Part shown: one piece after another, positions 3,268 to 48,750 of the stretch
Layout of the letters: each line of letters opens with the position of its first letter
Numbering within the stretch: the stretch's first letter is position 1
Virus record (IMG/VR): IMGVR_UViG_3300009788_000121
Span: 1-53,202 of that record
Reading direction: 5' to 3' (one strand)
Source: a virus
Lineage: Duplodnaviria; Caudoviricetes
Length of the DNA: 53,202 nucleotides
Program-made: the position numbers and the translations under genes
The notes under the pieces: model-generated
Seen by the model: only the letters and a program-made list of their open reading frames with translations
Databases searched by the model: none
Told to the model about the DNA's origin: nothing

Positions 3268-3916
3268 CTGGGTTAACCTCCGCATCAAAATCACCAATAC
3301 CACCATTACCACCTGATCCAGGATCAAGTATAGTTACACCACCCCAACTAATAGGTTTATTTTGTAAAGCTTGTACATATCTAAATCCAGTATCTGTAGG
3401 GTCTACATGTGTTTGTTGATACGCTTGATTAAATCTACCCCCACGAGGACGTTCCCAGTCTGCAAGTCTAGAAGTTGCATTTAAAGTAATAGTAGCTTTC
3501 TCTCCGAATTCTATATTACCAAAATCCATTCTTCCTGCAAATATAAGTACAGGTCCAGCTTGTCCCCCTTCTACTGCATAAGTTTCTTTATCTAATGTAG
3601 CATACCATAAGAATACTGGCTTACCTTGATACTCATTACTGAATATATCTGTTATAGAATCATTAGGTATACCAGACAATGATAATTGAATAGTTTGAGC
3701 AGCTAATTCTGTAGTTTCTGTAAGCACAGATAAACTAGCTAAATTACCTAACCCAGTATATTTTATTTCTCCACCACCTGCCTCATCCCAAAATATATCT
3801 TGATAAGAATTAGTATATCTAATAATGGGATCGAAATGCATTTTTGCAAGAATTACACCCGCAAAAGAACCACTATCAATTGAAGCTTGTGTTAAACTAT
3901 CTATTATTTTACTCAT
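3251..3916 (-). CDS. Minor tail / hub protein (gpL/DUF2163-like)
   Basis: 'YTGLGNLASLS', 'LSLSGIP', 'IFAGRMD' and 'PTDTGFRYV' pattern; synteny after Dit. Confidence 0.65.
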   Translation of the reverse strand: MSKIIDSLTQASIDSGSFAGVILAKMHFDPIIRYTNSYQDIFWDEAGGGEIKYTGLGNLASLSVLTETTELAAQTIQLSLSGIPNDSITDIFSNEYQGKPVFLWYATLDKETYAVEGGQAGPVLIFAGRMDFGNIEFGEKATITLNATSRLADWERPRGGRFNQAYQQTHVDPTDTGFRYVQALQNKPISWGGVTILDPGSGGNGGIGDFDAEVNPGAERP

Positions 3917-14653: not shown

Positions 14654-16075
14654 TTAAGATGCGATTTCGTAATTAACTGTTGCCTCTCCAGTAATAATAT
14701 CTTGGAAAGCGAATCTACGAGAAGAAACGATAACGCGTTTTTGGTTCACGATATCTTTGTCTGCTTCTGTAACGATTCCACGAAGATTACCACTTAGGAA
14801 GTTGCTTGCACGTACCATAACAGCCAGTTGTGTTCCAACTGTACCTGCTGTAATAGCAGCATTGTCAAACATTTGTGAAACAAGTACTTGAACTCCAAAG
14901 ATTGCACCAACTTGTCCGGTAAGAATTGTAGCTCTATCACCTAACACGTCGACTGTCTTGAAGTTAGGAAGTTTCATTAGCTCATAGAAGTAATCATGAG
15001 ATACTAGTAATACTAGTTGACTTGGGTCAAGCCCATATAATCCTAGATTACGTCTCATATCTACAATATGATCTTCTGTTACATTTGCTTCCCAAGCTGC
15101 TCCACCCGCTACTGTAACATCCGTTGTAAGTGCGCCACGGTTTGTTAATCCAGTAATAGGATCAAAAGAAGCTGATGTTGTTACACCGCCCCCACGTAAG
15201 AACGCTAGGTCGGATGCACGAGCCATTCTGCGGGTAACCGCATCACGAATAATTGGTGCTAATGTAACAATACTATCTTCTTCTTCTTCATAACCAACAT
15301 ACTCGCGTGTTGCTAGTTTATAGGCAATTAGCGTTTGTTCTAATAGTTGGTGATTTTGTGCATCGCCAGTTGAACCACTTGCTGATTCATCCGCTGGATT
15401 ATCGCTAGAACGGAACAATGAGTTATGAACCCATGTTGCATCCCCAGCTTCTGGGTTGATTGGTAGGTTAAGTGTTGGTGTAGTCATAGGAATTGTTGTG
15501 AATAGTGGTTCTACAACTAGAAGCTCACGTAGAGCGTCATGTACACGTGTAGAGTATTCATCTTCCCACTCACCTGTTACGCCAGGATCCCAATGCTCCA
15601 TCCCGGACTTTTTCGTATAATCTGTAAATGCTTTTGTTTCTTCAGGTTTCATCCCAAGTACTTTAGACGCATATAAGATTCCGTCTTTTGTGTCTGTACT
15701 CATACCAGAGAAAGGTCCTTTCTTATTGGCATCTGGTACAAACTTCATTTTGCTTTCGCGTTCAGCAGTAAAAGCAGCTTCTAGGTCACCACTTTCAGCG
15801 GCAGCCTCTAGGCTTTCTTTAATTTCAGCTAAGGCATCGGCTAGGTCACCATCTTTTTCTACTAATTCTTCACGTAGATCTTTGATCAAACGTTCAGCAG
15901 CAGTAGTGGCGGTAGCTTCGATCTTGTCATTAGCTTCCTTTTCTGCTTTTTCAGCTTCTTCCGCAGCTTTCTTATCCTTATCTAGGTCTCCCTTGACAGC
16001 GGCAGAAATCTGCGCAACTAAAGCTGCAACATCGATAGGCCCTTTTTTAGCCTTATCTTTACTCTTATCATCCAT
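14654..16075 (-). CDS. Major capsid protein from internal start (MDDKSKD..., 473 aa)
   Basis: GAGGAG-ACTTTA-ATG at 16075; size is comparable to the T5 pb8 precursor. Confidence 0.7.
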   Translation of the reverse strand: MDDKSKDKAKKGPIDVAALVAQISAAVKGDLDKDKKAAEEAEKAEKEANDKIEATATTAAERLIKDLREELVEKDGDLADALAEIKESLEAAAESGDLEAAFTAERESKMKFVPDANKKGPFSGMSTDTKDGILYASKVLGMKPEETKAFTDYTKKSGMEHWDPGVTGEWEDEYSTRVHDALRELLVVEPLFTTIPMTTPTLNLPINPEAGDATWVHNSLFRSSDNPADESASGSTGDAQNHQLLEQTLIAYKLATREYVGYEEEEDSIVTLAPIIRDAVTRRMARASDLAFLRGGGVTTSASFDPITGLTNRGALTTDVTVAGGAAWEANVTEDHIVDMRRNLGLYGLDPSQLVLLVSHDYFYELMKLPNFKTVDVLGDRATILTGQVGAIFGVQVLVSQMFDNAAITAGTVGTQLAVMVRASNFLSGNLRGIVTEADKDIVNQKRVIVSSRRFAFQDIITGEATVNYEIAS

Positions 16076-16621
16076 TAAAGTCTCCTCACTTTCTGACTTG
16101 ATAAATTGATTTCTAAACTCTTTGTAATCTTCAGTATTATCAAAATTCTTTTCAATACTGAAAAGTGCATTTTGATTCGCAGGAACAGACACTACACTAA
16201 CTTCAAATAATTCTAATTCTTTAATAAAGAATACTCCAGATTTTGGATCGAAGTCAGCATCTTTTATCATAAATCCAATACTAAATGCGGAAAGAATTTC
16301 TTCCTTAATTAATTCAATGATATCGCCTGCTGCTTTGCTAATCTTAGCTGTTATCTTTAAACCCTTGTCATCGACTTCATGATCTATAGTTTTACCTATT
16401 GGTCTAGAAGTATCATGAAATGCCAAAATAACTGGGTTTTTAAGATAGTTAGCTAGAGCATCTACTTTTTTCCATGCATCTAATATAATAACGTCACCTG
16501 TTCGGTCCTCGTCATTTGTACTAGCATGTCCGGTAATAATAAGATCTTCATCTTCTTCACCGTGTGCTGTCTTAGTTTCGATAGGCACGTAGAGTTTTAG
16601 AACTTTCTCTTTCGTTAGCAT
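14654..16621 (-). CDS. Prohead protease (HK97-family) fused in frame to major capsid protein with N-terminal scaffold domain
   Basis: Residues 1-~175: 'NPVILAFHD..RPIG', 'AFSIGF', 'ELFEVSVVSVPANQ'. Then a charged coiled coil and an HK97-fold capsid ('WEDEYSTRV', 'EEEEDSIV'). Confidence 0.9.
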   Translation of the reverse strand: MLTKEKVLKLYVPIETKTAHGEEDEDLIITGHASTNDEDRTGDVIILDAWKKVDALANYLKNPVILAFHDTSRPIGKTIDHEVDDKGLKITAKISKAAGDIIELIKEEILSAFSIGFMIKDADFDPKSGVFFIKELELFEVSVVSVPANQNALFSIEKNFDNTEDYKEFRNQFIKSESEETLMDDKSKDKAKKGPIDVAALVAQISAAVKGDLDKDKKAAEEAEKAEKEANDKIEATATTAAERLIKDLREELVEKDGDLADALAEIKESLEAAAESGDLEAAFTAERESKMKFVPDANKKGPFSGMSTDTKDGILYASKVLGMKPEETKAFTDYTKKSGMEHWDPGVTGEWEDEYSTRVHDALRELLVVEPLFTTIPMTTPTLNLPINPEAGDATWVHNSLFRSSDNPADESASGSTGDAQNHQLLEQTLIAYKLATREYVGYEEEEDSIVTLAPIIRDAVTRRMARASDLAFLRGGGVTTSASFDPITGLTNRGALTTDVTVAGGAAWEANVTEDHIVDMRRNLGLYGLDPSQLVLLVSHDYFYELMKLPNFKTVDVLGDRATILTGQVGAIFGVQVLVSQMFDNAAITAGTVGTQLAVMVRASNFLSGNLRGIVTEADKDIVNQKRVIVSSRRFAFQDIITGEATVNYEIAS

Positions 16622-16641: not shown

Positions 16642-17853
16642 TTAATCGTCATCTTCTTCTTCACCAGCTGGTGGTGCTCCACCATCTGTTGGGTCTGCTG
16701 CGCTTCCTGCTATGTTAGCGGGAATTCTGAGTTCATCAGATTCCGGATCTTTATCAGGCTCGAGTCTTAACTCAAGTCGCGCTTCATTTGGGGACATGAT
16801 ACCCCCGTTTACTAATCCTGTTAAATATTGCGTTTGATCTTTTAGTTCAGGGCGTAAAGCTCTGATCTTAATAACCTCTGGTTCCATGTCCCAGGCGAAA
16901 AACCTTTCGTAAGAACCAATGATTTTCGCAATTATTGGTAAAACTGTCGTTTCATAAAATAGCTGTATATTTGGTCTTAAATTTGCATTGTTTCCAGAGT
17001 TTAGAAGTACTGGTGGTACCCCCAACGCTTTCAGAATCTTTGTTTCATGAGAAGTTATTGATGCCTCAAAATCTAACTCACTAAACTTAACTTGGCTTAT
17101 AGGATTAACTTTCATATCCCCATCTAAGATTATAGGGCGTTTACCGCCAGAATTAGGCTTGTATTTTGTTATCCAAGCTCTAAGTAACTTTTCTTTAATC
17201 TTATCCCCTAAAATATTAGGCGTTTGAATAATCAATCCTGGTACTGCTGCATTGTCAAAGAAATCATTTTGAAATCCTAACATGCTTTGTAATATTGTTA
17301 TACTTCTTTTAGCACTTAATAATCTACTAGTACCCACATAAACAGATGTAGCAGAGTTATCTTTTGTATGTATAACTTCATCTGGCATAAGCTTAATATC
17401 TGAATTATACATATAATGCGAAACTTTAGTATTTTCCCCACTTATCACTTCCATTAATTCTGATGGTAAATGATTTAAGTTAAGTCCTTTTTTATCCCAT
17501 AATTGAAAACAATTACCTGTAAGTACTAAATCTAATACTAGTTGACGACGGAAGGTATTTACATCTTCATCATCATTTGGACGAAAATTAAGTATAGTCG
17601 ATAAAGTTTTCTTTCTTACTCTACCCCCTTCATGTACAGTAGGTATAGGCAAAACATCTGTAATATTAATGTCTATTTCTGTTGCAGAGTCGGATATCAT
17701 ATCAACTCCACGTCTTACAACTTCAATATTGTCGAAAGACTTTTCAAAAAAGAAACGTTTTTCAGACGCTTCTATAGTTCCCCCTTCTAAATCGTGAATA
17801 GCGCTCTGGTGTCTATTCTTCCATTCCCACTCTAATCTCTTGAATATATTCAT
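16642..17853 (-). CDS. Portal protein (HK97 family, T5 pb7-like)
   Basis: 'LNFRPN', 'FFDNAAVPG', 'ALGVPPVLL', 'NGGIMSPNEAR'; 403 aa. Confidence 0.93.
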   Translation of the reverse strand: MNIFKRLEWEWKNRHQSAIHDLEGGTIEASEKRFFFEKSFDNIEVVRRGVDMISDSATEIDINITDVLPIPTVHEGGRVRKKTLSTILNFRPNDDEDVNTFRRQLVLDLVLTGNCFQLWDKKGLNLNHLPSELMEVISGENTKVSHYMYNSDIKLMPDEVIHTKDNSATSVYVGTSRLLSAKRSITILQSMLGFQNDFFDNAAVPGLIIQTPNILGDKIKEKLLRAWITKYKPNSGGKRPIILDGDMKVNPISQVKFSELDFEASITSHETKILKALGVPPVLLNSGNNANLRPNIQLFYETTVLPIIAKIIGSYERFFAWDMEPEVIKIRALRPELKDQTQYLTGLVNGGIMSPNEARLELRLEPDKDPESDELRIPANIAGSAADPTDGGAPPAGEEEDDD

Positions 17854-17862: not shown

Positions 17863-18444
17863 TCATTGGATAGTGACTACTCCAAGGTAACCTAACCTGT
17901 CACCCATACAGCTTGTCATTTTATAACTAGTGCATTTGACAGGAATACAATTCCCATCAGGTGTTTGGAAGTCTAACTTTCCGGAAAATTCTCTATCTTC
18001 ATCAACAGACTTATACCAAGCTGTTACAACTTCTTCTCGCGTCTTTTGGCAGATGGCGTTAACCCATCCGTGTCCCATAAGTTCACTTGGAGTACGTTGT
18101 ACTAGCTTACAGTATGTTCTATTAACCCAGGTACAGTTTCCTTTTATATCAGTTTCAAACATTGCATCTTCAGTCTCAGCATTTAACGCTCTAAATCTTT
18201 CACGAGATAATGCTACTTCTCTTTCAATTCGACCAAGACTATCTTTCATGGATTTACCACCATTTGGTGTAAGTTCCTCAAAAATAATATCGATCTTGTC
18301 TACAGCCTCACTATACTTAGTTATAGCTTCCCACATAGGTTTAATTCCTTTTTTGTATAGTAATGTAAAAAGACCTATGCTTACACTAATAGCTGTGGCA
18401 TAAAATGCGTAATTTTCTACGAAAAGACTCCATGCTTCAGACAT
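17863..18444 (-). CDS. Membrane-anchored PAS-domain protein
   Basis: N-terminal TM helix, 'ELTPNGGKSMKD', then PAS S-box-like 'ERFRAL...AMFETDIKGNCTWVNRTY...ELMGHGWVNAI...FQTPDG...GYLGV'. Confidence 0.75.
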   Translation of the reverse strand: MSEAWSLFVENYAFYATAISVSIGLFTLLYKKGIKPMWEAITKYSEAVDKIDIIFEELTPNGGKSMKDSLGRIEREVALSRERFRALNAETEDAMFETDIKGNCTWVNRTYCKLVQRTPSELMGHGWVNAICQKTREEVVTAWYKSVDEDREFSGKLDFQTPDGNCIPVKCTSYKMTSCMGDRLGYLGVVTIQ

Positions 18445-18806: not shown

Positions 18807-18912
18807 AACAAATATAAATGTTGTATTTCAATTTTTTTCTTCTCATTGTATATATTCTGACATACTTTTAGCAGCAAGTCAAGAAGTATTTTTAATTATG
18901 GTGTACAGAAAT

Positions 18913-19053
18913 TTAGTCCTCTAAAAGTATGACCATAAATGCTATAGCAAGTAATCCTAGCATACCCATACCCCCTGCAACCTGATATGCCAAATTAAAT
19001 AAAAATATACCGAAAACTAAAAGAAATAAGAAATAAGCACACCCAGATCCCAT
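18913..19053 (-). CDS. 46-aa two-TM membrane protein
   Basis: Manual translation MGSGCAYFLFLLVFGIFLFNLAYQVAGGMGMLGLLAIAFMVILLED; TGATG-coupled to the PagL-like gene. Confidence 0.55.
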   Translation of the reverse strand: MGSGCAYFLFLLVFGIFLFNLAYQVAGGMGMLGLLAIAFMVILLED

Positions 19054-19544
19054 CAAAATCTATAGCCACCATTTATCATATTTACTCCAGCATTAGGTCT
19101 ACTAGTACCTGCATTAGAGTAATGTCTGAAGATTCCATAGAATCGTGTATTTGGTATAGAGTACTCTATAGATAAACCATAATTTAAATGACTACTAGTA
19201 GCATGACTAGTATTATTAAAGTAACCTAGTCCAATTCCTAAAATAACGTTATCTAAGAAACCTGGTCCACGTACAATACGTTCACCGAAAACTAACATAT
19301 TATTTTGAACATTTCGACTTTTGTAAGTCATATCGCCTATTAGACCAATACCGCCCCGCCATCTTTCATTACGTTCGGATAACATAATATTAAAAGTTTC
19401 AAGTTTTATATTATCACTAATGAATGGTACTCCACCTTCTACGGCAGTTTCAGCACGACCATCATAAGCAAAGAAGATTAAAACTACAATTATAAATGCA
19501 CCTATAACTAATTTTACTGGTTTCGGATTGTTAAATAAACTCAT
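19053..19544 (-). CDS. pagL: PagL-like lipid A 3-O-deacylase (acyloxyacyl hydrolase) outer-membrane beta-barrel
   Basis: Signal peptide; C-terminal 'RHYSNAGTSRPNAGVN...GYRF' is the PagL H-x-S-N-A-G-x3-P-N-x-G signature plus a terminal Y-x-F beta-signal. Confidence 0.8.
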   Translation of the reverse strand: MSLFNNPKPVKLVIGAFIIVVLIFFAYDGRAETAVEGGVPFISDNIKLETFNIMLSERNERWRGGIGLIGDMTYKSRNVQNNMLVFGERIVRGPGFLDNVILGIGLGYFNNTSHATSSHLNYGLSIEYSIPNTRFYGIFRHYSNAGTSRPNAGVNMINGGYRF

Positions 19545-20908
19545 GTGATTCCTCCTACTGAGCGTTCGTAAGTATAAATTGCATAACGTATTGCATCAGC
19601 ACAGTGACTAGCGCGATTATGTTCTGGCTTTTGTGATTCGATGTTCCAAACGCCAGCATCTGCAGACCCCTTCCATTTGTAGTTGCGCAACGCGTAAATT
19701 GATTCATGGCATTCATCATGCACGATCAATCTATCATTGTCAATAACGGCGCCTACCGCGCCGATGCCATCAGTTCTAGACTTAATAGCAGCTATTGTAG
19801 ATATATCATAAATAGAAGCCAAGTCCCATCTAGTTTGCGCGGCTGCCGAATCACAAAAAATATATTCCAAGTCCCACTTCTCAACTCGAGCTGATATTTC
19901 AGCAGCGTGTTTATCAGTGCCTTTTTCTGCTTGTACGTATTCATCAAGTATAGAATAGATATTCAAACCATCAGAATCTTCATATACTAGCATTACTACA
20001 AGAGCAGTTTGATCTCGGAATCCTAAATCTAATCCGGCTATAATTTCATATCTAGCAGGATTAGCAACGATATCGTGAATCATAATTGTAAGGTCTTGAA
20101 TAGCTGAACCTTTCAATGCCCACACTTGGCCTTCGAACGTTACAAAGTTAGCCATGTACTCTTGCTCAAATTCTGAGTGAGACATAGTCTTTCTAGCTTG
20201 GGCTATATCTTTTTTAGAAGCTCTAGGATTTTCATGGTAATCAGCATGAATTGATAGCCACTCGGCTAAATCAGGATCAGTTGAGAATCCACGTTGAAAA
20301 AACTCTCTAAACCAGTTATCTCCACGTGGTGTAGAGATGAACAAACATTTAGAGTTTAATTTATCTAAAGTTGGGCGCAGAGCTACATTGAATGCTTGGC
20401 CACCGGCGTCGTTTAACGCAGCTTCATCGAAGATGATAAGATCGTAACTTCGCCCAACGGCCGAATCAACTCGACTAACAGAAGCAATCTTAATAAGAGA
20501 ACCATTTGATAATTCAATAATTCTATCTTTAGCATTGTCTCGTATGCGTTCGATATCGAACTTGTCAAGTAGCGTGCGTTGTAAGTCCCATGATATACCA
20601 GATAAGGCATAATCGGGGCTAATAATAAGCACCGATGCTCCAGGCATAAGTGCTACGACTTGCAAAATGATATTTGCAATAAAAGTTTTACCTACTCGCC
20701 TAGAAACACATGCAGTAATAAATCTATATGAAGGAGAATTAATTGCATTAATAATTGCATTTTGTACTCTATTTGGAACTATCGGTTTGTTTTCCGAGTC
20801 CGTCAGTAACTTTAAGTAATTCTGTATTGGTACCTTTAGAAATCTTTTCGACGCCGATAGTTCCACTATGTGGTTTAATTCTAGATTTGGATCCGAAACT
20901 TTTAACAT
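19541..20908 (-). CDS. terL: Terminase large subunit (T5-like)
   Basis: Walker A 'SRRVGKT', Walker B 'LIIFDEAA', 'FISTPRG', nuclease 'GLDLGFRD', 'SHCADAIRY'. Confidence 0.95.
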   Translation of the reverse strand: MLKVSDPNLELNHIVELSASKRFLKVPIQNYLKLLTDSENKPIVPNRVQNAIINAINSPSYRFITACVSRRVGKTFIANIILQVVALMPGASVLIISPDYALSGISWDLQRTLLDKFDIERIRDNAKDRIIELSNGSLIKIASVSRVDSAVGRSYDLIIFDEAALNDAGGQAFNVALRPTLDKLNSKCLFISTPRGDNWFREFFQRGFSTDPDLAEWLSIHADYHENPRASKKDIAQARKTMSHSEFEQEYMANFVTFEGQVWALKGSAIQDLTIMIHDIVANPARYEIIAGLDLGFRDQTALVVMLVYEDSDGLNIYSILDEYVQAEKGTDKHAAEISARVEKWDLEYIFCDSAAAQTRWDLASIYDISTIAAIKSRTDGIGAVGAVIDNDRLIVHDECHESIYALRNYKWKGSADAGVWNIESQKPEHNRASHCADAIRYAIYTYERSVGGIT

Positions 20909-21062
20909 TTAATAATTCTTCTCTTGTGTATAGTGAGCCAGAGGAATCTCTAACTACACCATTTTTATAATCTCTCAAAAAATCGAGAGCAGATTTAATC
21001 GGCATATCCTGTGCCACAATAACTTCTCTAACTTTGTTCTTTACATAACATGTATATAACAT
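20769..21062 (-). CDS. Hypothetical protein (3' part overlaps the terL start)
   Basis: TAATG-coupled to the upstream ORF; no recognisable motif. Confidence 0.4.
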   Translation of the reverse strand: MLYTCYVKNKVREVIVAQDMPIKSALDFLRDYKNGVVRDSSGSLYTREELLNVKSFGSKSRIKPHSGTIGVEKISKGTNTELLKVTDGLGKQTDSSK

Positions 21063-21322
21063 TAATATATTCCTCGTATTATCTTTTTGGGGTCAACACA
21101 TTTTGCACTATGCATTTCATGATAAGTAAGAGGATGTGGTATTCTAGATATAGTATATTTTCTTATCATCATAGCACCTCCTGCTTTTTTACAACTAGCA
21201 GATGCAATAATATATGTATCAACCATTTCATCATAACGTGCTATTTTTTCATAAGGTGATAGTGTTTGACATCCTCCAATTACAATATTAACTATCAATA
21301 AGCTTTTCCATAAGTTTACCAT
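21062..21322 (-). CDS. Putative small lipoprotein
   Basis: MVNLWKSLLIVNIVIGG-C lipobox-like; GGAG upstream of ATG 21322. Confidence 0.5.
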   Translation of the reverse strand: MVNLWKSLLIVNIVIGGCQTLSPYEKIARYDEMVDTYIIASASCKKAGGAMMIRKYTISRIPHPLTYHEMHSAKCVDPKKIIRGIY

Positions 21323-21758
21323 AAGAACCCTCTCCGTATACATTAACCTGAGTATTCTTAGTCAGTCCAACTTCTTTACTAACATCAGCTTGTAATAATT
21401 TAGACATATCCATTCTAAATTTATGTGCCATAAGTAGTAAGTCAGCTATATCTTTATTAGAACCGATTTCAGCTTCATCAAGCTCTGCCCACTTGCGATC
21501 GACTAGATCATCTAGTTTTTCAGCTATTTGTGCCATATGACGATATCCGTGTTCTCTTAATATAGAGTTGACGTAAGTTTTTATAAGTGGTTGTTGTAAT
21601 ACTGCTGCAATTTCATGTGTGGGTACATCTAGTGACTGAGAGCATTCTTTTATAGAGCATCCATTAGCTAAATAAGTGTTGGCAATTTTTGCTCCGTCAG
21701 GACTTATTAATTCTGGGGTAGCATCTTCTGAAAATGGTTGTAGTTGATAATCGCTCAT
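21288..21758 (-). CDS. terS: Terminase small subunit (T5-like)
   Basis: 'ISPDGAKIANTYL', 'GSNKDIADLL..AHKFRM', 'YGKLMEKL'; upstream of terL. Confidence 0.85.
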   Translation of the reverse strand: MSDYQLQPFSEDATPELISPDGAKIANTYLANGCSIKECSQSLDVPTHEIAAVLQQPLIKTYVNSILREHGYRHMAQIAEKLDDLVDRKWAELDEAEIGSNKDIADLLLMAHKFRMDMSKLLQADVSKEVGLTKNTQVNVYGEGSYGKLMEKLIDS

Positions 21759-21991: not shown

Positions 21992-22016
21992 GCGGTAGTT
22001 CTCCTATTAATAAGTT

Positions 22017-22045
22017 AGTGTAACACGTCGGGGGCGTCATGTCAA
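22017..22045 (-). promoter_or_regulatory. Sigma70-type late promoter
   Basis: Minus strand: A-tract, TTGACA-17 nt-(TG-N)TACACT. Confidence 0.7.
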
Positions 22046-22167
22046 GAACTTTTTTTGTATTAGGTTTATAGTTTGCACCGGAATTGGTTTTTTGAAAAAT
22101 CATGGTTGTACACGTGTGGGGTAGTCCGTTTATAGGGGCTTAGAACGGGTCTAATAACCGCCCCCGG

Positions 22168-22211
22168 TTGGCACGATTCTTGCCAATAGGTAATGGCAAA
22201 TTGCGTGCCAA
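22168..22211. promoter_or_regulatory. Pair of convergent sigma54 (-24/-12) consensus-like sites
   Basis: TTGGCACGATTCTTGC (+, 22168-22183) and TTGGCACGCAATTTGC (-, 22196-22211). Confidence 0.6.
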
Positions 22212-22307
22212 TAACCTGGATCGCTTATACCGATTCGGTATATCAAATCTATTGACTCGAATCGGAAAATCGTGTTATTGTATCTTTACTGACTCGGGAG
22301 AAAAATC

Positions 22308-22934
22308 ATGGCTAGAAAATTATTTACATCAGCTTCACTTTATACCCTTGAAAATGATATCGTTCACGTTCACGTCGCGTGGATGGACAAGGATTATAAT
22401 TCTGACTCGCTGAAATTCCTTGCCGAAGGTTATCAACACGCGGTAGAATTGCTTGATACGCTCTTCGGTAATTGGACTGACTGCGACCAGTCAATAGCAA
22501 GGAGCGCATAATGGGATACTATAAAGACAAGGCAATCGAGCAAGAAGAATCCGAGATGGCTTTGGATTTTGACGAACGCAACTACACAGACGGCGGGTAC
22601 TGGTCAGAACGTGATGCTGAACGTGTAATGGCAGAACATGACGAACTGACTCGAATCGAAAATCAAGCGAAGCTTGAAGACGAACGCCGCACAATTGGAG
22701 GATGGTAAAATGAAGAATTTTCTAATCGCAATGGCTTTGATTGTTGGACTGCCAAGTTTTTTCATCGGCACATACAAATTGTTCGAGGTGATTGATTGCA
22801 ACACGGCACAAAAGAATCTACGATTCATTGATGCCTGCATCACAGATGATAATTGTAATCTAACAGCACGCGACAGACAGAGCGCAGAAAGCTGGACACG
22901 ATTAAAATTGGCACGATGCCACTCGAAAGACTAA
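22308..22934 (+). other. Operon of three small pre-early hypothetical genes (22308-22511, 22511-22708, ~22710-22934)
   Basis: TTGACT-17-TATTGT promoter at ~22252-22281, GGAG/GGAGG RBSs, coupled stops and starts, terminator at 22941. Confidence 0.65.
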
Positions 22935-22940
22935 CTCAAT

Positions 22941-22965
22941 AGCCCCGCCGAGGCGGGGCTTTTTT
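22941..22965 (+). terminator. Intrinsic terminator
   Basis: AGCCCCGCC-GA-GGCGGGGCT followed by a T-run. Confidence 0.85.
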
Positions 22966-22989
22966 CTGTCTGATCCCTGGAACCAGGCA

Positions 22990-23014
22990 AATGCGAATGA
23001 GAATCATTCGCATT
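22990..23014. repeat. Fur-box-like palindrome (copy 1 of 5)
   Basis: AATGCGAATGA-GAA-TCATTCGCATT; related copies at 23571, 25356, 25944 and 27965. Confidence 0.7.
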
Positions 23015-23309
23015 GGCGCGCCATTTTACCATATACACCCCTAGCCTGTCAATACGTATATCTACCTATTGCATATATCGTTTGGTTATGAGACAATCGG
23101 GTGTTATGTTAGAAAAATATAATATAAATAGAATAAAGGGGTGGGGGGTGGGCGCCAGTGAGTGACGGCAGTATTTTGTACGTGTGTTACGTCCGAAAAT
23201 ATGTGCTTGACAATTGGTGGTGATTCGTGATAAAATAAATTATTAACTGGAAGAATAAGATGGATATAAGAGATACCGAAAGAGAACAGACCCTCAAGGA
23301 GATAAACTA

Positions 23310-23519
23310 ATGCCGAAGAATAGAAAAAGAGTATTACAAAAAGGGGGCAAAAGCGTGAGCATACGTACCAAACACAAAATTGGTGGGCGTAAGGCTAGCA
23401 AAGGCACAAATGAAATGAGCAATACTGAATTGACAGGCTTGTTAAATAAGGTCAACAAGCGTGATCGTAACAAGCTACGCCGCGCTATACTAGCGCGATT
23501 CAAAGATCTCCCAAGCTAG
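23310..23519 (+). CDS. Small basic hypothetical protein
   Basis: AAGGAG RBS, TTGACA promoter at 23207, terminator at ~23541-23570; Lys/Arg-rich. Confidence 0.65.
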   Translation: MPKNRKRVLQKGGKSVSIRTKHKIGGRKASKGTNEMSNTELTGLLNKVNKRDRNKLRRAILARFKDLPS

Positions 23520-23570
23520 GTGCAGACCTAGCACACTTTGCCCTCCGCTGTCAAGGCGGAGGGCCTTTTT

Positions 23571-23642
23571 AAATGAGAATCGTTCGCATTCGGGCACCCT
23601 CGCAGGTGCGAGGGTGCCCCGCTACGCGGGGCATGTCAAGCG
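23571..23642. repeat. Composite palindrome module A
   Basis: Fur-like box + GGGCACCCTCGCA-GG-TGCGAGGGTGCCC + small hairpin + TGTCAAGCG. Confidence 0.85.
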
Positions 23643-23715
23643 TTTTATTTGCTTATTTCGCTTGTGCCGTACTTGATTTTCTGGTAAACTAAAAACTTGA
23701 TTTTGGGAGAACAAA

Positions 23716-24231
23716 ATGTTTGATAGAATATTCGATTTTTTGGAAAGCGTATGGGAATGGATTATTCCCTTTGTGATCATTGACCAATACGAGCAGGGCG
23801 TCGTCCTGAGATTCGGAAAATTCCAGCGTATCTTAAACCCCGGTCTGCGCTGGATTATCCCGCTAGGTGTAGATGCTGTAAAATATGAAACCGTTGTAAG
23901 GCAAACGGCATATCTCGATGTGCAGTCCATTACTAGCCAAGATGGAAAGTCAGTCAGCGTATCAGCAATTGTTGTGTTTACTATTACCAATATTCGCAAA
24001 TTCCTGTTAGAAATTGACGAAGGTGAAACCGATATGACTAACATGGTCTATGGCATCATAACGGATTTTGTCGAGTCAACGATTTGGATAAACATTAGAG
24101 GAAAAAACTTCAACAAAAAAGTATTAGAAAAATGTCGCCGCGACTGTGAAAATTATTGCGGCGTGAAAATTATTTCAATCAAATGGTCAGACAAAGCAAC
24201 TGCAAGGAATATCAGATTATGGAACGATTAA
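23716..24231 (+). CDS. SPFH/band-7 domain protein
   Basis: 'YEQGVVLRFGKFQRILNPGLRWIIP', 'QSITSQDG'. Confidence 0.85.
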   Translation: MFDRIFDFLESVWEWIIPFVIIDQYEQGVVLRFGKFQRILNPGLRWIIPLGVDAVKYETVVRQTAYLDVQSITSQDGKSVSVSAIVVFTITNIRKFLLEIDEGETDMTNMVYGIITDFVESTIWINIRGKNFNKKVLEKCRRDCENYCGVKIISIKWSDKATARNIRLWND

Positions 24232-24587
24232 ACGGCTTTTGTAAGGGGGTATCTGCGGGCTTTATTATATGGTTTATTATTGCCCTTATGATTCTATCCG
24301 GTTGTGCTAGTTCGCCGGTCGCTATGCCTTACAACAAGATCGAAAGCGAATACAATATTACGACAACTACAATTCTTGTCCACTGGTATAACTCGGAACA
24401 AGAGTTGCAACTATCATTAGGGCATCGCGGTATAGCTGGATTTTCAGAATGTGAATTGCGTCCCGACTTCAATACATCGTTTTGTGAATTGTGGTTAGTG
24501 CGGCCGATAGATGCTAACGATTATTACTCATTCGATACTATCGGTCACGAATTCTATCACGCACTAGCAGGGGGTTTCCATGACTAA
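24219..24587 (+). CDS. Putative lipoprotein with HExxH motif
   Basis: Hydrophobic stretch + LSGC lipobox; C-terminal 'TIGHEFYHAL'. Confidence 0.55.
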   Translation: MERLNGFCKGVSAGFIIWFIIALMILSGCASSPVAMPYNKIESEYNITTTTILVHWYNSEQELQLSLGHRGIAGFSECELRPDFNTSFCELWLVRPIDANDYYSFDTIGHEFYHALAGGFHD

Positions 24588-24605
24588 ACAACTTAATTCT
24601 TTGGT

Positions 24606-25247
24606 GTGGGCATTGCTGTTTACTATAGGCTTGTTCGCTGGCGTATTGGTCGGACTGTTTACAGTGTGGCTTTTGTCATGATTAAGGTGGGTAATAGAGT
24701 AAGAATTAAAAACTACTCAAAAACGTTAAACGGGGAAAAAGGAACTGTAGTACGGCGCGATGGATACTATGTTTATGTTTATCCCGATTGCCAACCGAAT
24801 AACACCAAATACCCGCTTGAATTGTATGACTGCGAATTGGAAAAACTGCCATGCAAATAAAAAATTTCGGCATCCGTGATATTGAAAGCGTATGCGAAAA
24901 CACCACGCGCAGAATGAAAACGGCACATTACACGTTGCTAGATTCTACCTGCGCACAAGCGAAAAAAGAATTACGCAACTTGCGTATAAACTGCAAAAAA
25001 TTTGGAGACGATGATGCGAAAATATTGGAATCCGGTTGTAGCTAGAAAACATTACAATGGTGTAACGATTGGTTACATCGTTGGATGGAAACACATTCAC
25101 TGTAACTTTGTGCGAAACATTCGTGCTGGTTTGATTTTCAAAAAGTTGGGTGATGCGTTACGGTTCAGAGATAATATGGAACGCAAGCGTACTTGCCCGT
25201 ATGTCGAATTTGAGATAATCGAGGGGGAAGATAAAACCAGAGTCTAA
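24606..25247 (+). other. Three small hypothetical ORFs (24606-24860 with an SH3/KOW-like 'IKVGNRVRI', 24851-25045, 25002-25247)
   Basis: Overlapping co-oriented ORFs ending at the terminator-like AAAAGCCTTGCA..TGCAAGGCTTTTT (~25267-25295). Confidence 0.5.
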
Positions 25248-25304
25248 GACTCCAAGGACGTACCACAAAAGCCTTGCAAATGCAAGGCTTTTTTGTAAAT
25301 AAAT

Positions 25305-25446
25305 CGCTTGACAAGCCCGGTGTAGTCGGGCACCCTCCCACCGGGAGGGTGCCCAAATGCGAATACGTCTCATTCGTATTGGGGCACCCTCGCAGGTGCG
25401 AGGGTGCCCCACCTAAAACCTGGTGTCAATAGGTATTTCTACCTAT
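25305..25446. repeat. Composite palindrome module B
   Basis: CGCTTGACA + hairpin + palindrome (25328-25354) + Fur-like box + palindrome (25381-25410) + TGTCAATAGGTATTTCTACCTAT. Confidence 0.85.
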
Positions 25447-25479
25447 ATACTATTTTTCTGATCGGCGTATACTCTCTTT

Positions 25480-25879
25480 ATCGGATCGGGACAGAGAGAA
25501 ATTAACCCCTCTCATTAAACAAGAATTTGGTTGTTTAGGAAAACTGCCCCATACCGGTCTAGCAAGAGAAGTGAAAAGAAAGGCTAATCGAAACCACTTG
25601 AGCTAGTAGGAGCATCGGAGATTGGAACCTTTAAGAATGGTCAAAGGGTGAGTCAAAGAAGATGGTCCACCTTCCCCACCTTCGGGTGGGGATTTATTCA
25701 AAGAGATAACGCTTAGGCGAGATTTCAAGGGTAGAGAAGCCTAAACTCTTTAAAATTAAGGGCCGACAGATACTCGGGATACAAAATTATCAGAGGAACC
25801 AGCCTCTTTAAAAATTTGCAGAGAACAGCTGCCATAAAAAAATCACGCGCCCCCCATCTTCGGATGGGGGGCTTTTTTT
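25480..25879 (+). ncRNA. Candidate ~400-nt pre-early non-coding RNA
   Basis: TATACT -10 at 25468, no credible ORF, two C(UUCG)G-capped stems, ends in a strong terminator (25849-25879). Confidence 0.55.
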
Positions 25880-25891
25880 GTCTAAAATAAA

Positions 25892-26106
25892 CGCTTGACA
25901 ACGCTTGACAGATAGGGCACCCTCACACCTGTGAGGGTGCCCTAATGCGAATGCGTCTCATTCGCATTCAGCGCCCGCCGAGCAAAAGACGTTACTCTAA
26001 TTGTATCACATACGCCTAAGAATGTCAACACTTATTTTCGATATTATGTCAAATCGGGCACCCTCGCAGGTGCGAGGGTGCCCGCTGCGCGGGCGCGTGT
26101 CAAGCG
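25892..26106. repeat. Composite palindrome modules C and D
   Basis: Tandem CGCTTGACA + palindrome 25913-25944 + Fur-like box; palindrome 26055-26084 + hairpin + TGTCAAGCG. Confidence 0.85.
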
Positions 26107-26233
26107 ATTTATTTTCTTTTTTGCTTGACTTATCCCTGGAGCATGTGCTAGGCAATAGACCACGATATTTTACAACGTGCGGAATTTTCGTGCTATACTT
26201 GGTGGCTGGCACTACTCACAAGAGAATTTGACC

Positions 26234-26710
26234 ATGTTTAAACGCATCCATACTTATGATCTCGACGGGGTTCTGGTTGATACCGCGCACAGATACCGCA
26301 ACTTGCCAGACGGTAGCATTGATATGCCCTACTGGAACAAGAACCACACCGAAGAAAAAATAGCGCAGGACAAAATTTTGCCGCTGGCAAAACAATTCCT
26401 TGCCGACTGTTTAAACCCGGAAACGTATTGCATACTGTGTACTGTTCGCACAATGCACATACTAGATATTGCGTTTATCGTTGGACGGTTGGGCGCTCCC
26501 GACAATTTGCTTATGGTGGGTGAACCCCGCCCGCCATATTCGCTCGACTACATTTTAAAACGTCGCGCACTAACCCGCATTTTTAATTTGCGGCAATTTT
26601 CTAAGCTACCGAAAAAACTTTGGGAGGATAACATTCGCAACATTGAAAACCTACAAAACCTTTTTGATCGTTGCTACTATGTCCCGTCACGCATCACCGC
26701 AAGGAATTAA
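26234..26710 (+). CDS. dmp: Deoxyribonucleoside-5'-monophosphatase (HAD family, T5 Dmp-like)
   Basis: 'YDLDGVLVDTAHR...DGSIDM...IAQDKILPL...ILCTVR...WEDN' parallels T5 Dmp as I recall it; pre-early location. Confidence 0.75.
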   Translation: MFKRIHTYDLDGVLVDTAHRYRNLPDGSIDMPYWNKNHTEEKIAQDKILPLAKQFLADCLNPETYCILCTVRTMHILDIAFIVGRLGAPDNLLMVGEPRPPYSLDYILKRRALTRIFNLRQFSKLPKKLWEDNIRNIENLQNLFDRCYYVPSRITARN

Positions 26711-26714
26711 AACG

Positions 26715-27437
26715 ATGAGACAAAAAACTTTTTTGGTAATGGATACTGAAACTACGGGCATTGCGTCAAAGGCTATGGTTTTCGACTTTGCATATGTGAT
26801 TGCCACGCGTACCAAAATTTTGTGCGAGCGCAAATTTTTAATACGCGAAATTCTAACTAACCCACGCGTGATGTTAGGCGCGCTTTACGATAGAACATGG
26901 CGCGATATGATGGGGGGTAAACTGTTTCATCATTACATACCCGGCTTGCATAGCGGCGAACTAGAATTATTTGGCTGGCGCGATGCGTTACAAATTATGC
27001 GCGATGACGTTTTGACTTTCGGCGTTGATGTTATATGCGCGTATAACCTGCCATTCGATTTGGGCGCGTTAAACAAAACGCATCAACGTATCACCGAAAA
27101 GAATATTAACCTTTCGCGTTTTGACTTGTTATGCCTTTGGGAATTTTCCTGCTCGACTGTTTGCAAGGAAGCGTTATATCATCAAGTAGCGCGACAGCAG
27201 GGACAAGCGACCGGATGGATTACACCGGCCAACAACGTACGAACTAACGCGGAGAAAGTTTACGCATTCTTATCCGGTGATTTGAATTTTGTGGAATCGC
27301 ATACTGCGTTAGAGGATGCACAAATCGAAACCGAAATTTTGCAACGCCTGTTAGCAAAACGCAAAACGATCCCGTACAATGTGCTAGATCATATGCCGTG
27401 GCGCAAGGCGCAGCAAATCAACGGTCAGATGTTTTGA
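26715..27437 (+). CDS. DEDDh 3'-5' exonuclease
   Basis: ExoI 'VMDTETTG', ExoII 'AYNLPFD', ExoIII 'HTALEDA'. Confidence 0.88.
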   Translation: MRQKTFLVMDTETTGIASKAMVFDFAYVIATRTKILCERKFLIREILTNPRVMLGALYDRTWRDMMGGKLFHHYIPGLHSGELELFGWRDALQIMRDDVLTFGVDVICAYNLPFDLGALNKTHQRITEKNINLSRFDLLCLWEFSCSTVCKEALYHQVARQQGQATGWITPANNVRTNAEKVYAFLSGDLNFVESHTALEDAQIETEILQRLLAKRKTIPYNVLDHMPWRKAQQINGQMF

Positions 27438-27460
27438 CCATCACCCAAGAGGAAAAGAAA

Positions 27461-27847
27461 ATGACCGAAACAAAGGTAAACTACGATGATGAAACCACGA
27501 CCAAAATCGTGGAAGCGTACAAGATTGGCGAATCCGATGATCAGCGTAAAGCAATTCTGGAAACGCTGTCAGCGGAGACTGGTAAGACAGTCAAAAGCCT
27601 GCGCGCTAAACTGGTCCGGGAGGGTGTGTACGTTAAACAGACGTACAAGACCAAGACCGGCGCGAAAGCGGAAACCAAGGAAACGATTGTCGAATCAATC
27701 GCTGTTCTGATGGATGTTACCGCAGAGCAACTTGGCGGATTGGAGAAAGCAACGAAACCCGCGCTGCTGAGAATCCGTAAGCAATTCCGGGGTGCTTACG
27801 CCGCACTTGCTGGCGAAGATGAGGCGGGAGAGGAAGCGGCAGAATAG
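27461..27847 (+). CDS. T5 A2/D3-family DNA-binding protein (copy 1)
   Basis: 'VNYDDE...GKTVKSLRAKLVREGVY...GLEKATK'; GAGG RBS; terminator 27872-27900. Confidence 0.75.
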   Translation: MTETKVNYDDETTTKIVEAYKIGESDDQRKAILETLSAETGKTVKSLRAKLVREGVYVKQTYKTKTGAKAETKETIVESIAVLMDVTAEQLGGLEKATKPALLRIRKQFRGAYAALAGEDEAGEEAAE

Positions 27848-27912
27848 CCGAAAATCCCTAGCACGAAATTTGGCCCGCGTCAAGGCGCGGGCCTTTTTTT
27901 CTTTGAAAAAAA

Positions 27913-28069
27913 CGCTTGACAAGCCCCGCTACGCGGGGCACCCTCGCACCTGCGAGGGTGCCCGAATGCGAATGATTCCCATTCGCATTCGCGAGGGTGC
28001 CCGCCCTCCCACCCTGCGAGGGTGCCCGATCCAAAAAACCGTGTCAATACGTATATTTACCTATTGACA
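27913..28069. repeat. Composite palindrome module E
   Basis: CGCTTGACA + hairpin + palindrome 27936-27963 + Fur-like box + two half-sites + TGTCAATACGTA-TATT-TACCTATTGACA. Confidence 0.85.
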
Positions 28070-28287
28070 AGATATGCCTCAACGTGGTAAACTAAAGGGT
28101 TAAGACATTTTCCTTATATTAGAAAAAGCTAATATACGTAACCGGCAAGATATTACCCATTCACACTATCGAGCGCAAGCGGCGCTTGCGCCAGTACCTA
28201 GTGCCTGGTGGAGCCTTTTTTAATTACATGCGCATCCGCGCCAGTATACCACGTCGGCATTTCAAAGTCAAGTCGAAAATTTTTTTC

Positions 28288-28398
28288 TTGACATTACCTG
28301 GCCCCCGTGATATAATATATTTATCAGATGGAAAAGAGCAACAGTATTTAAGGGCAGAAAAAATAGTTCTTGACATCTTCCCCAAAATCAGATATAAT
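28288..28398 (+). promoter_or_regulatory. Two tandem consensus sigma70 promoters
   Basis: TTGACA-17-TATAAT at 28288-28316 and 28370-28398. Confidence 0.9.
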
Positions 28399-28437
28399 AG
28401 TATTTCAAATCGAGATACACACAACTGGAGAATAAGC

Positions 28438-28764
28438 ATGACTGACAAAGTAGTTAATTACTCTGACGAGGCCGTTACCGCCCTGCACAACGTGTATGAT
28501 GGTACCGCATCCGATGAGGATCGTAAGGCACAGGTTGCAGCACTGGCCGAGGAACTCGGCAAATCTGCTGCATCTATCCGCGCTAAGCTGACCCGTGAGG
28601 GCATTTATGTAGCACTGACCAAGGCCCCAGCTGGTAAAGCACCGGTTCGCAAGGCCACTCTGGTACAGGACATCGCTGATGCACTTAAGGTCGATGTAGA
28701 CGTGATCGGTTCGCTAGAGAAAGCAACCAAGAACACACTGGAGCGCATCCTCAAAGCTCTCTAA
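28438..28764 (+). CDS. T5 A2/D3-family DNA-binding protein (copy 2, likely the main A2)
   Basis: 'VNYSDEAV...LGKSAASIRAKLTREGIY...SLEKATK'; GGAG RBS; strong promoters; terminator 28782-28814. Confidence 0.8.
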   Translation: MTDKVVNYSDEAVTALHNVYDGTASDEDRKAQVAALAEELGKSAASIRAKLTREGIYVALTKAPAGKAPVRKATLVQDIADALKVDVDVIGSLEKATKNTLERILKAL

Positions 28765-29177
28765 GAGCAACAAAAATGCAAGGACCAGGTGGGAAACTAC
28801 CTGGTCCGTTTTTATGCGCTCTGCGCCAGTAGCTGACAGCTTCTCCCATTATAGTATACCATATTGGCATAAACAAGTCAAGTTGAAGATTTCCCGCCTA
28901 ACTGGCGCGCTTCGCGCGCAATACGGGCAATAAACGCACTTAAAGTGACTTATATGCACATATTCGAGCATTTAGCGAGATTTAAGCATGGTATACCCCT
29001 GTAGTAGTCTATATTGACCCCCCTGTTGCCACGAAGTGGGGATAAAGTACACATAATTGCCGCCGGAGGCGGCCAGTGTGACAATTAAAGGTTGTATACG
29101 TGAGAAAAACTTGACTTGACATTTTCTTGGTGCGCCCCGACCTGTAGTAAAAAAGGTCTATTTTTAGCAACCTCGAA

Positions 29178-29227
29178 TTAAATAATCATCTATATTGCCA
29201 TTTTAGGCAATATAGATGATTATTTAA
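29178..29227. repeat. 22-bp perfect inverted repeat
   Basis: TTAAATAATCATCTATATTGCC-ATTTTA-GGCAATATAGATGATTATTTAA. Confidence 0.9.
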
Positions 29228-29329
29228 AAATTCAAATACAAAAAAGGCCCACATCCGCAATGATGTAGGCCTTCCCGGAGTAACGCTTATGAGCAATGAG
29301 CGTAACTTAATTGTCAAATTTTAATTTTA

Positions 29330-29761
29330 CTACTTACCCTTATGTAGTATAGTTATAGGATCATAATTATCTGTCTGTTTTTGCATTTCCTGGCGTATAC
29401 TATCCACCTCAGCAAGAGTAGTAATTTGTCCTAATGTATCCTCTAGGGTATATGCCATATCTACTACAGTGTTTGATAGAACCTTTAATGTGGCTTTTGG
29501 AGCCTTATCGAGCCCTGGAAGCTTAATATCAAGTGCATCTTCGACACTTCTCACAATTTGTAGCTTAGTAACGGGCGTTTCACCTAACTTAGTAACATAC
29601 CCCCTAGTAAGATATAATCCATCTTTAGACAATTTAGATATAATAGATTTCTTCGGTTTATTCAATATAGTACAAAGTTTAAGTACAGTCTCCATGCACG
29701 GATTATCGCAGTATATATCATGCAGCTTTTTAGTCTCATTCATAGTGTATGAACTAGCCAT
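29330..29761 (-). CDS. T5 D3-like protein (A2/D3 family, copy 3)
   Basis: 'KSIISKLSKDGLY...YVTKLG...GLDKAPK' aligns by eye to the two A2-like genes; D2-x-D3 order as in T5. Confidence 0.7.
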   Translation of the reverse strand: MASSYTMNETKKLHDIYCDNPCMETVLKLCTILNKPKKSIISKLSKDGLYLTRGYVTKLGETPVTKLQIVRSVEDALDIKLPGLDKAPKATLKVLSNTVVDMAYTLEDTLGQITTLAEVDSIRQEMQKQTDNYDPITILHKGK

Positions 29762-30002
29762 CTATTTCTTCCTTTTTCCAGTAAAAAGGATAACTCCCGC
29801 CCTGGCCGCCTCCGGCGGCAAGTGGCGCAATATCAGGCGTTATACCTCCAGCGGCAAGTGGCACACCATTTTGTCTACATAATTTGTCAAATTTCTCATA
29901 TTTGTAAACAGCCTCTAGTTGTGCTAATTGTGATTCTAGCAAATGCAGTTGAGTTCTTTTTATGTTTACTTCATTCTGTAAATATTGTATGTCGTCTTTC
30001 AT
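29754..30002 (-). CDS. Hypothetical protein
   Basis: Coupled between the D2- and D3-like genes. Confidence 0.5.
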   Translation of the reverse strand: MKDDIQYLQNEVNIKRTQLHLLESQLAQLEAVYKYEKFDKLCRQNGVPLAAGGITPDIAPLAAGGGQGGSYPFYWKKEEIDG

Positions 30003-41785: not shown

Positions 41786-41862
41786 TGCGGGATAGAGCAG
41801 TCCGGCAGCTCGTTAGCCTCATAAGCTAAAGGTCGGCGGTTCAAATCCGTCTCCCGCTACCA
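41786..41862 (+). tRNA. tRNA-Met(CAT), initiator-like
   Basis: Cloverleaf, CTCATAA loop, 1:72 mismatch, CCA; anticodon stem lacks the three G-C pairs. Confidence 0.9.
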
Positions 41863-41867
41863 AACAA

Positions 41868-42013: not shown

Positions 42014-42018
42014 AACAA

Positions 42019-42335: not shown

Positions 42336-42340
42336 AACAA

Positions 42341-42623: not shown

Positions 42624-42631
42624 AACATATA

Positions 42632-48744: not shown

Positions 48745-48750
48745 AATTAT

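Follow-up and report, generated by a model that had tools for sequence, protein, structure and literature searches.

A putative PagL-family outer-membrane esterase encoded beside terL in the late operon of a T5-like phage

Results

The PagL-like gene and its signals

We analysed a 53,202-base stretch of DNA, hereafter the window, which is the whole of IMG/VR virus record IMGVR_UViG_3300009788_000121 and has a CheckV completeness of 55%. Judged by its sequence, the window is a fragment of a distant T5-like, lytic-type phage. Our subject is a gene within it that encodes a protein resembling PagL, a family for which the 3-O-deacylation of lipid A is the sole activity given in the excerpted text of a review (PMC4402001). 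An original prediction had placed here, at 19053..19544, an open reading frame (ORF) with a signal peptide, a PagL-type active-site motif and a terminal YRF. The translation confirms this ORF, to which we add that it is read from the minus strand; on the plus strand inside 19053..19544, the ORF listing of the window holds no ORF of 30 amino acids (aa) or more. The gene and its parts are:

19053..19544, minus strand: PagL-like gene, 163 aa plus stop codon (ORF listing, Pfam PF09411, AlphaFold2 (AF2) model, match to 2ERV_A)
19452..19544, minus strand: signal peptide, residues 1-31, with a predicted signal-peptidase I site between G-R-A and E and a model helix at 8-27
19056..19451, minus strand: predicted mature 8-stranded beta-barrel, residues 32-163, ending Y-R-F (AF2 strands; C-terminal F in relatives)
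19080..19124, minus strand: active-site stretch H141-x-S143-N144 ... P150-N151-x-G153-x-N155 (profile alignment to 2ERV)
19551..19556, minus strand: Shine-Dalgarno sequence AGGAGG, with a 6-nucleotide (nt) spacer to the PagL ATG, within the 3' end of terL (read from the DNA)

The gene is tied to its neighbours on both sides by overlapping codons. At the junction with terL, which reads AGTAGGAGGAATCACATGA on the minus strand, the PagL ATG (19544..19542) overlaps the terL TGA (19543..19541) as ATGA, and at the 3' end, within TTGATG on the minus strand, one base is common to the PagL TGA (19055..19053) and the start codon ATG of a small downstream ORF. With a GC content of 0.327 and a GC content at third codon positions (GC3) of 0.171, the gene lies within the range of the late genes of the window (GC3 0.10-0.34), which argues against a recent foreign arrival; it has either long been resident in such a genome or arrived from a similar one. 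Promoter- and terminator-like sites around the operon are no commoner than in shuffled sequence, so that transcription units are not definable from them. The stretch is present in full in one DNA sequencing run only, possibly that of the source sample, and no RNA run containing it is listed.

The signal peptide was read from the sequence alone. It consists of the n-region MSLFNNPKPVK, the h-region LVIGAFIIVVLIFFAY, a hydrophobic stretch 16 residues long, and the c-region DGRA, followed by E. A site of the A-x-A type, in which a small residue, any residue and Ala precede Glu or Asp, is kept in 11 of 11 close relatives, and the precursor would be cut between G-R-A and E. The protein ends in G-G-Y-R-F, and the last residue is F in 75 of 80 aligned relatives. 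It thus has both features expected for targeting to the outer membrane, namely a signal peptide of the cleavable type and a C-terminal aromatic residue.

Family membership

As a check, the original prediction had proposed a profile search against the PagL family. This search gives a match above the curated cut-off (PF09411; 34.2 bits against 23, E 3.2e-8, profile positions 15-134 of 136), which is the sole Pfam match of the 163-aa protein at E<=1 and is also returned by a search of the window's own record. Searches of NCBIfam and PHROGs gave no match, and phrog_15758, which is matched by the prophage-type PagL copies described below, was not matched either. An exhaustive HMMER search of 1.84 billion representatives found 108 relatives at E<=1e-3, the closest of them 49% identical, and 80 of these were aligned, short or partly aligned ones being left out. 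H141, S143, N151, G153 and G105 are invariant across the 80 aligned relatives, 73 of which match Pfam PagL by themselves. Searched against solved structures, the profile built from this alignment has one match, Pseudomonas aeruginosa PagL (2ERV, E 2.8e-8), while phmmer with the single protein found none among the sequences of the PDB. A word-indexed search of 5.8 billion proteins returned the protein itself only, and pattern searches for close relatives, run in viral contigs from the query, P0002 and a four-sequence alignment and in metagenome contigs from P0109, found nothing.

A quick maximum-likelihood tree with 79 rows places the window protein in a 12-member clade (SH-like approximate likelihood-ratio test (SH-aLRT) 98), whose other 11 members, its closest relatives, are metagenome proteins; one cluster member, P0128, lies on a 91.5-kb contig. 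The clade is nested in a 64-row group (SH-aLRT 87) to which 10 of the 22 viral-contig sequences belong, and the prophage-type copies and two copies from metagenome-assembled genomes fall outside this group. One PF09411 cluster in the ESM Atlas has 109 members and is 96% viral, and a viral cluster of the Atlas carries the automatic name 'acyloxyacyl hydrolase family protein'.

Predicted fold

The structure prediction that had likewise been proposed yields an 8-stranded barrel in the model, with PagL 2ERV as its best match. AF2 run on the single sequence reached a pLDDT of 38 and was replaced by a model built with 80 sequences (pLDDT 95, pTM 0.86), which shows an N-terminal helix at 8-27 and eight main strands at 32-42, 52-58, 62-69, 82-92, 100-109, 120-129, 135-143 and 154-162. 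VIA-align ranks 2ERV_A first (Z 17.4, root mean square deviation 2.0 A over 123 residues, 20% identity over aligned residues), followed by OmpA (Z 14.8) and then OmpW, PagP and Ail, the Ail chains scoring Z 9.4-10.8. Foldseek also points to a small outer-membrane barrel, with TM-scores of 0.59 and 0.66 to 2ERV_B. The model thus has the eight-stranded antiparallel outer-membrane beta-barrel of the PagL family, and the barrel that the original prediction had read from an alternating strand pattern is borne out by the Pfam score, the pLDDT of the model and the match to 2ERV_A taken together.

Judged from the strand limits, the extracellular loops of the model are short. In the model, His141 and Ser143 are situated at the end of strand 7 and Asn155 at the start of strand 8. 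The N and C termini of such barrels are both on the periplasmic side; if that applies here, the active site would lie at the outer-leaflet end of the barrel, where lipid A sits.

An asparagine variant of the active site

PagL is described, in the part of the review at hand, as an 8-stranded barrel whose active site has a Ser-His-Glu triad and a conserved Asn in the oxyanion hole (PMC4402001), and the His and Ser of the motif are essential according to an extract of PMC4958258. The window protein carries the motif H141-Y-S143-N144-A-G-T-S-R-P-N151-A-G153-V-N155, in which profile alignment pairs H141 with H126, S143 with S128, N144 with N129 and N155 with E140 of 2ERV. The H-x-S pair that provides the catalytic His and Ser at the end of strand 7 is present and invariant in 80 of 80 relatives, and the column of the oxyanion-hole residue N144 is Asn in 69 of 80. 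The acidic member of the triad, Glu140 in 2ERV, is missing: the corresponding column holds Asp in 69, Asn in 10 and Glu in 1 of the 80 relatives, and Asn155 in the window protein. The motif H-Y-S-N-A-G-x3-P-N-x-G-x-N that had been called intact is thus present letter for letter, but its last residue takes the place of the acidic triad residue.

Asn at the triad position also occurs in homologues on viral contigs, for example L034, L054 and L037. Since His141 and Ser143 are kept in all 10 relatives with Asn at position 155, we read Asn155 as a variant that the family appears to tolerate rather than as the sign of a dead enzyme. The loss of the acidic residue nevertheless means that full activity is not assured, and we class the protein as a variant of PagL chemistry rather than as a textbook PagL.

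The late operon and the variable slot behind terL

The PagL-like gene is part of the late module, a minus-strand block at 2-21758 that runs in the order terS, two small ORFs, terL, PagL-like gene, small membrane ORF, phrog_3497, PAS-domain protein and portal, continues with a protease fused to a head protein, connector proteins, tail tube, tape measure and tail tip, and is cut inside the tail-tip gene by the left end of the window. The genes that frame the PagL-like gene are:

21288..21758, minus strand: terminase small subunit (terS), upstream gene of the operon (phrog_3802, E 1.5e-28)
19541..20908, minus strand: terminase large subunit (terL; Pfam Terminase_6N and Terminase_6C, phrog_2), whose stop codon overlaps the PagL start
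18913..19056, minus strand: small two-helix membrane ORF, 46 aa from the ATG at 19053 or 47 aa from TTG, with counterparts in L122-L125
18417..18806, minus strand: backbone gene phrog_3497 (function unknown in PHROGs), which closes the variable slot (E 6e-26; in 78 of 80 related loci)
16642..17853, minus strand: portal, the downstream continuation of the operon (phrog_12, E 1.1e-55)

DNA and annotation therefore agree with the earlier placement of the gene in the packaging and head operon of a lytic-type T5-like phage, coupled to terL by ATGA. TerL is at most 49% identical to that of deposited phages, and its best matches are all T5-type, from Demerecviridae of Providencia, Yersinia, Vibrio and Klebsiella; two of these phages have one gene only between terL and portal. 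Among the ORFs of at least 90 aa scanned in the rest of the window, PHROGs recognised no lysis genes.

A terL-based IMG/VR search provided 80 related loci (L122-L201), with terL identities from 80% down to 48%. None of them encodes a PagL-family protein (E<=1e-3, A1 model), and none was found in five related viral records searched whole, all of which are fragments, 16-67% complete. The backbone around the site is retained, with phrog_3497 in 78, portal in 76 and terS in 68 of the 80 loci, and the spacing from terL to phrog_3497 varies from 29 to 3721 bp in 78 loci, exceeding 400 bp in 35 of them; in the window it is 734 bp (18807..19540). The junction of terL and phrog_3497 is a variable slot, an insertion hot spot across this phage group, and the PagL-like gene is accessory cargo in that slot and not part of the phage backbone. 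As the closest phage relatives lack it, the gene is not needed for lysis or assembly, and as optional cargo it would bring a conditional benefit.

The four closest relatives fill the slot differently. In L125 and L123 it holds the small membrane ORF alone, which in L125 is ATGA-coupled to terL; in L124, a 201-aa exported protein with collagen repeats stands ahead of this ORF, and in the L122 slot lie an exported Ser/Gly-rich protein of 212 aa and a membrane protein of 206 aa. The small membrane ORF, which has no Pfam or PHROG match, thus has counterparts by position and sequence in L122, L123, L124 and L125, all without PagL, and the aligned ORFs of window and relatives have in common a start M-x-G-C, a central V-G-G-W-G and an acidic end. 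The original prediction had described the PagL-like gene as coupled to this 46-aa ORF; the shared base of stop and start codon agrees with that, but a partnership of the two proteins, which we considered, was rejected, because an ORF kept in four relatives without PagL is a backbone gene of the sub-lineage.

PagL-family genes on other viral DNA

PagL-like genes are common on uncultured viral contigs. The pattern H-x-S-N-A-G-x3-P-N-x-G matched at least 118 stretches in IMG/VR, and 116 of the 118 listed matches are PagL-family proteins. The largest cluster among the listed matches comprises at least 84 loci with a motif region nearly that of 2ERV. The two loci examined from it, L004 and L014, are lambdoid-type prophage contigs whose PagL copies reach 145 bits against Pfam PagL and match phrog_15758 (unknown function in PHROGs). 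On the L004 contig, which also carries NinB and Rha, the gene (5961..6506, minus strand) lies between NinG and a holin-like gene with terS and terL; the L014 contig carries terS, terL and portal. These copies resemble the window gene in being PagL-family genes on phage DNA ahead of packaging genes. They differ in staying close to the bacterial enzyme, with the motif ..HYSNAG.KQPNDGIES.. as in 2ERV, in the match to phrog_15758 and in their part of the tree, and they belong to temperate phages, in which they may serve as lysogenic-conversion genes, whereas the window phage is of lytic type.

The remaining IMG/VR clusters are diverse, and the nearest to the window protein among the matches listed are 31-37% identical. 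PagL stands directly before terL in L046 and in the order PagL, 77-aa ORF, terL, portal in L023; an endolysin gene lies within about 600 bp of PagL in L034 and L016 and about 2.2 kb away in L066; DNA-transfer and primase genes lie near it in L043. A stricter subfamily pattern matched 56 stretches on JGI metagenome contigs, 54 of them PagL-family; among 185,579 species of bacteria and archaea, each represented by one genome, it matched only 2 stretches. Annotated with PHROGs, 13 longer metagenome loci include eight with virion or packaging genes, one with replication and queuosine genes, one with an integrase and three that are unclear. The divergent genes of L023, L046/L244, L066, L251, L225 and L250 belong to the same subfamily as the window gene (29-37% identity) and have phage genes around them, and L023 and L066 also have an N-terminal F-N-N-P/R-N-P signal region similar to that of the window protein. 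They differ from it in their phage backgrounds (sheath/tube contigs, T7-like contigs, other terminases), none of which has the window backbone, and in their sites, which are before terL, beside endolysin or inside tail genes. On the metagenome contig L225, the PagL-family gene (3353..3871, minus strand) lies between two tail-tube genes and adjoins a tail-sheath gene in a contractile-tail operon.

Deposited phage genomes give a different picture: six different phage PagL-like queries found no match by tblastn in 50,697 of them, in contrast to terL, which matched 986 records. L023 and L239 were considered as T5-like relatives with PagL at another site and dropped after tblastn against the window backbone, in which L023 showed no terL similarity at E 1e-5 and L239 only one tail protein at 22% identity.

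Discussion

A late-made lipid A deacylase as the preferred reading

Sequence and predicted fold together assign the protein to the PagL family, and the gene is placed for co-translation with terL. On this basis we consider it fairly probable that the product of the gene is a functional member of the PagL-family outer-membrane serine esterases, from a divergent branch that is largely phage-borne, and an active lipid A deacylase made late in infection is the interpretation that we favour, with moderate confidence. We propose a sequence of events in which (i) the PagL-like gene would be transcribed and translated with the late packaging and head operon, through the ATGA coupling to terL and a strong ribosome-binding site of its own; (ii) the precursor would be exported by Sec and cut after G-R-A; (iii) the host beta-barrel assembly machinery (BAM) would insert the predicted 8-stranded barrel, ending in Y-R-F, into the outer membrane; (iv) the His141/Ser143 pair and the oxyanion residue Asn144 would come to lie where strands 7 and 8 reach the outer leaflet; and (v) an ester bond of lipid A would be hydrolysed there. 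The phage thus probably edits the outer membrane of its host late in infection.

The protein compares most closely with P. aeruginosa PagL (2ERV), with which it has in common the 8-stranded barrel, the H-x-S-N-A-G-x3-P-N-x-G motif, the signal peptide and the C-terminal aromatic residue. It differs from that enzyme in its 20% identity, in Asn155 in place of Glu140 and in its setting, the late packaging operon of a lytic-type phage, whereas PagL is chromosomal and regulated by the host.

Several observations weigh against the preferred reading. Asn155 may lower or alter the activity; the closest phage relatives lack the gene; the Pfam score of 34 bits is modest beside the 145 bits of the prophage copy L004; and the nearest named clusters in the ESM Atlas are bacterial (Pseudomonadota), so that the branch may not be exclusive to phages. 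As regards function, catalysis in the phage branch is predicted only, a protein made late has little time to act as a block to superinfection, and lipid A is buried, which makes a direct effect on a receptor less than obvious.

Possible benefit to the phage

The original prediction had named a block to superinfection, the avoidance of re-adsorption and a weakening of the outer membrane as possible roles, each of which the enzyme might serve. The gene is late, dispensable in close relatives and, in other phages, often near lysis or packaging genes, which leads us to favour a benefit that is conditional and falls at the end of infection. Should the enzyme be active, the pay-off could plausibly be an outer membrane that is loosened or vesiculated, aiding release at lysis; with somewhat more reserve, we consider that infected cells, debris or vesicles might become poorer targets for the phage itself or its rivals, and other effects take up the remainder. 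In Salmonella, an extract of PMC4958258 reports that active PagL raised vesicle output about 4-fold and that the H163A S165A form did not, from which it follows that deacylation can alter the behaviour of the outer membrane; E. coli K-12, according to the same publication, has no pagL.

A wider hypothesis, which we regard as speculative and rather unlikely to hold in full, is that lipid A editing is a widespread phage strategy. A divergent, mostly phage-borne PagL branch would then move between unrelated tailed phages as late cargo and strip acyl chains from the outer leaflet in the last minutes of infection, leading to failure of the outer membrane or shedding of vesicles at lysis and to debris that traps fewer progeny, by an enzymatic route distinct from that of spanins.

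Phages alter O-antigen and block protein receptors. For phage-borne PagL, or for phages that edit lipid A itself, a literature search found no publication; in the portions available, PMC6863877 and PMC7649339 concern LpxR and not phage PagL, and PMC11483031 deals with chromosomal pagL only. Taken alone, the window is a modest advance: it adds another member, whose active site is an Asn variant and whose genomic setting is clear, to a phage gene family that recurs but is uncharacterised. An active enzyme would add a chemical step to the dealings of phages with the outer membrane, whether in lysis, vesicle release or exclusion, and would provide a compact means of reducing the acylation of lipid A; the slot behind terL in this phage group would then be a place to seek other envelope-directed cargo.

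Alternative explanations

A PagL-fold esterase might instead act on another outer-membrane substrate, such as a different acyl position, a glycolipid specific to the host or a phospholipid that has ended up in the outer leaflet. We consider this unlikely, although the divergence of the branch leaves some room for it: the protein scores 34 bits against Pfam PagL and is 20% identical to 2ERV, the triad position holds Asp or Asn and not the Glu of the characterised enzyme, and the automatic name of a viral ESM Atlas cluster is that of an acyloxyacyl hydrolase. Set against this are the active-site motif in common with 2ERV, including the oxyanion Asn and the P-N-x-G loop, and the single activity given for the family in the reviewed material (PMC4402001).

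Less likely still is a catalytically weak or dead barrel that acts by its presence at the surface of the infected cell, for example by blocking a receptor or excluding other phages, and that would resemble other outer-membrane proteins encoded by phages, such as Lom of phage lambda. Asn155 in place of the acidic residue would fit such a protein, as would the non-enzymatic exported proteins that occupy the slot in L124 (collagen-repeat) and L122 (Ser/Gly-rich). The invariance of His and Ser in 80 of 80 relatives, including all 10 that carry Asn, is hard to explain without catalysis, however, and the short extracellular loops of the model leave little surface for blocking. Lom itself is a phage-encoded outer-membrane protein with an 8-stranded barrel of the Ail/OmpX type, and the window protein resembles this group as a phage-encoded 8-stranded outer-membrane barrel that forms accessory cargo among late genes. 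It does not belong to the group: PagL is its only Pfam match, its structural match is clearly better to PagL (Z 17.4) than to Ail (9.4-10.8), and it has the His-Ser active-site pair that Lom and Ail proteins lack.

It is very improbable that the gene is a neutral or decaying passenger without a role in infection, or a host gene misassembled onto phage DNA, as the absence of PagL from 80 of 80 related loci and the presence of the full stretch in a single sequencing run, possibly of the source sample, might suggest, since the reading frame is unbroken, has a strong ribosome site and meets its neighbours on both sides in overlapping stop and start codons, the base composition is that of the neighbouring late genes, all conserved family positions are kept, and a chimeric join would not yield an ATGA overlap with terL.

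Relation to T5 Llp and an adjacent lipoprotein-like ORF

T5 Llp is a small receptor-blocking lipoprotein that binds FhuA, has a lipobox with an acylated Cys and is encoded beside the gene of the receptor-binding protein. By the analogy that the original prediction drew, the PagL-like protein would likewise be a small envelope protein of a T5-type phage that alters the surface of the infected cell. It is not a lipoprotein of the Llp type: it has a signal-peptidase I site, an enzyme fold and no lipobox, no Cys occurs near the end of its signal peptide, and its gene is flanked by terL and the small membrane ORF, not by a receptor-binding gene. The earlier remark that no llp is recognisable here does not hold safely, as the window is an incomplete genome that ends in the tail-tip gene and contains a lipoprotein-like ORF between terS and terL; by T5 gene order, llp would presumably lie beyond the left end of the window.

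The lipoprotein-like ORF encodes 93 aa (21062..21343, minus strand) and shares 56 nt with the 3' end of terS. The stretch MVNLWKSLLIVNIVIGG-C, beginning at its eighth residue, resembles a lipoprotein signal that includes a lipobox. Neither Pfam nor PHROGs gave a match for the ORF, and tblastn found no match to it in any of the 80 related loci. To judge from these residues, terL may have beside it a second cargo gene directed at the envelope, which is also a candidate for a role like that of Llp.

Further observations on the window

Between phrog_3497 and portal lies a gene for a 193-aa PAS-domain protein (17863..18444, minus strand) with an N-terminal membrane helix and a PAS_9 match of 33 bits. 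It is kept in just 5 of the 80 related loci, and a sensor-type domain is unusual inside an operon of virion genes. A 655-aa ORF at 14654..16621 (minus strand) fuses a prohead protease domain (phrog_80) to a major head protein (phrog_617, phrog_10), a fusion matched in 63 of the 80 related loci. The plus strand carries 16 tRNA genes at 41786..52952, for one of which (52277..52351) ARAGORN gives an anticodon of two bases and assigns no amino acid. The region at about 22000..30000, with a GC content of 0.42-0.47 as against 0.32-0.39 in most of the window and with few long ORFs, separates the divergent late (minus-strand) and plus-strand gene blocks.

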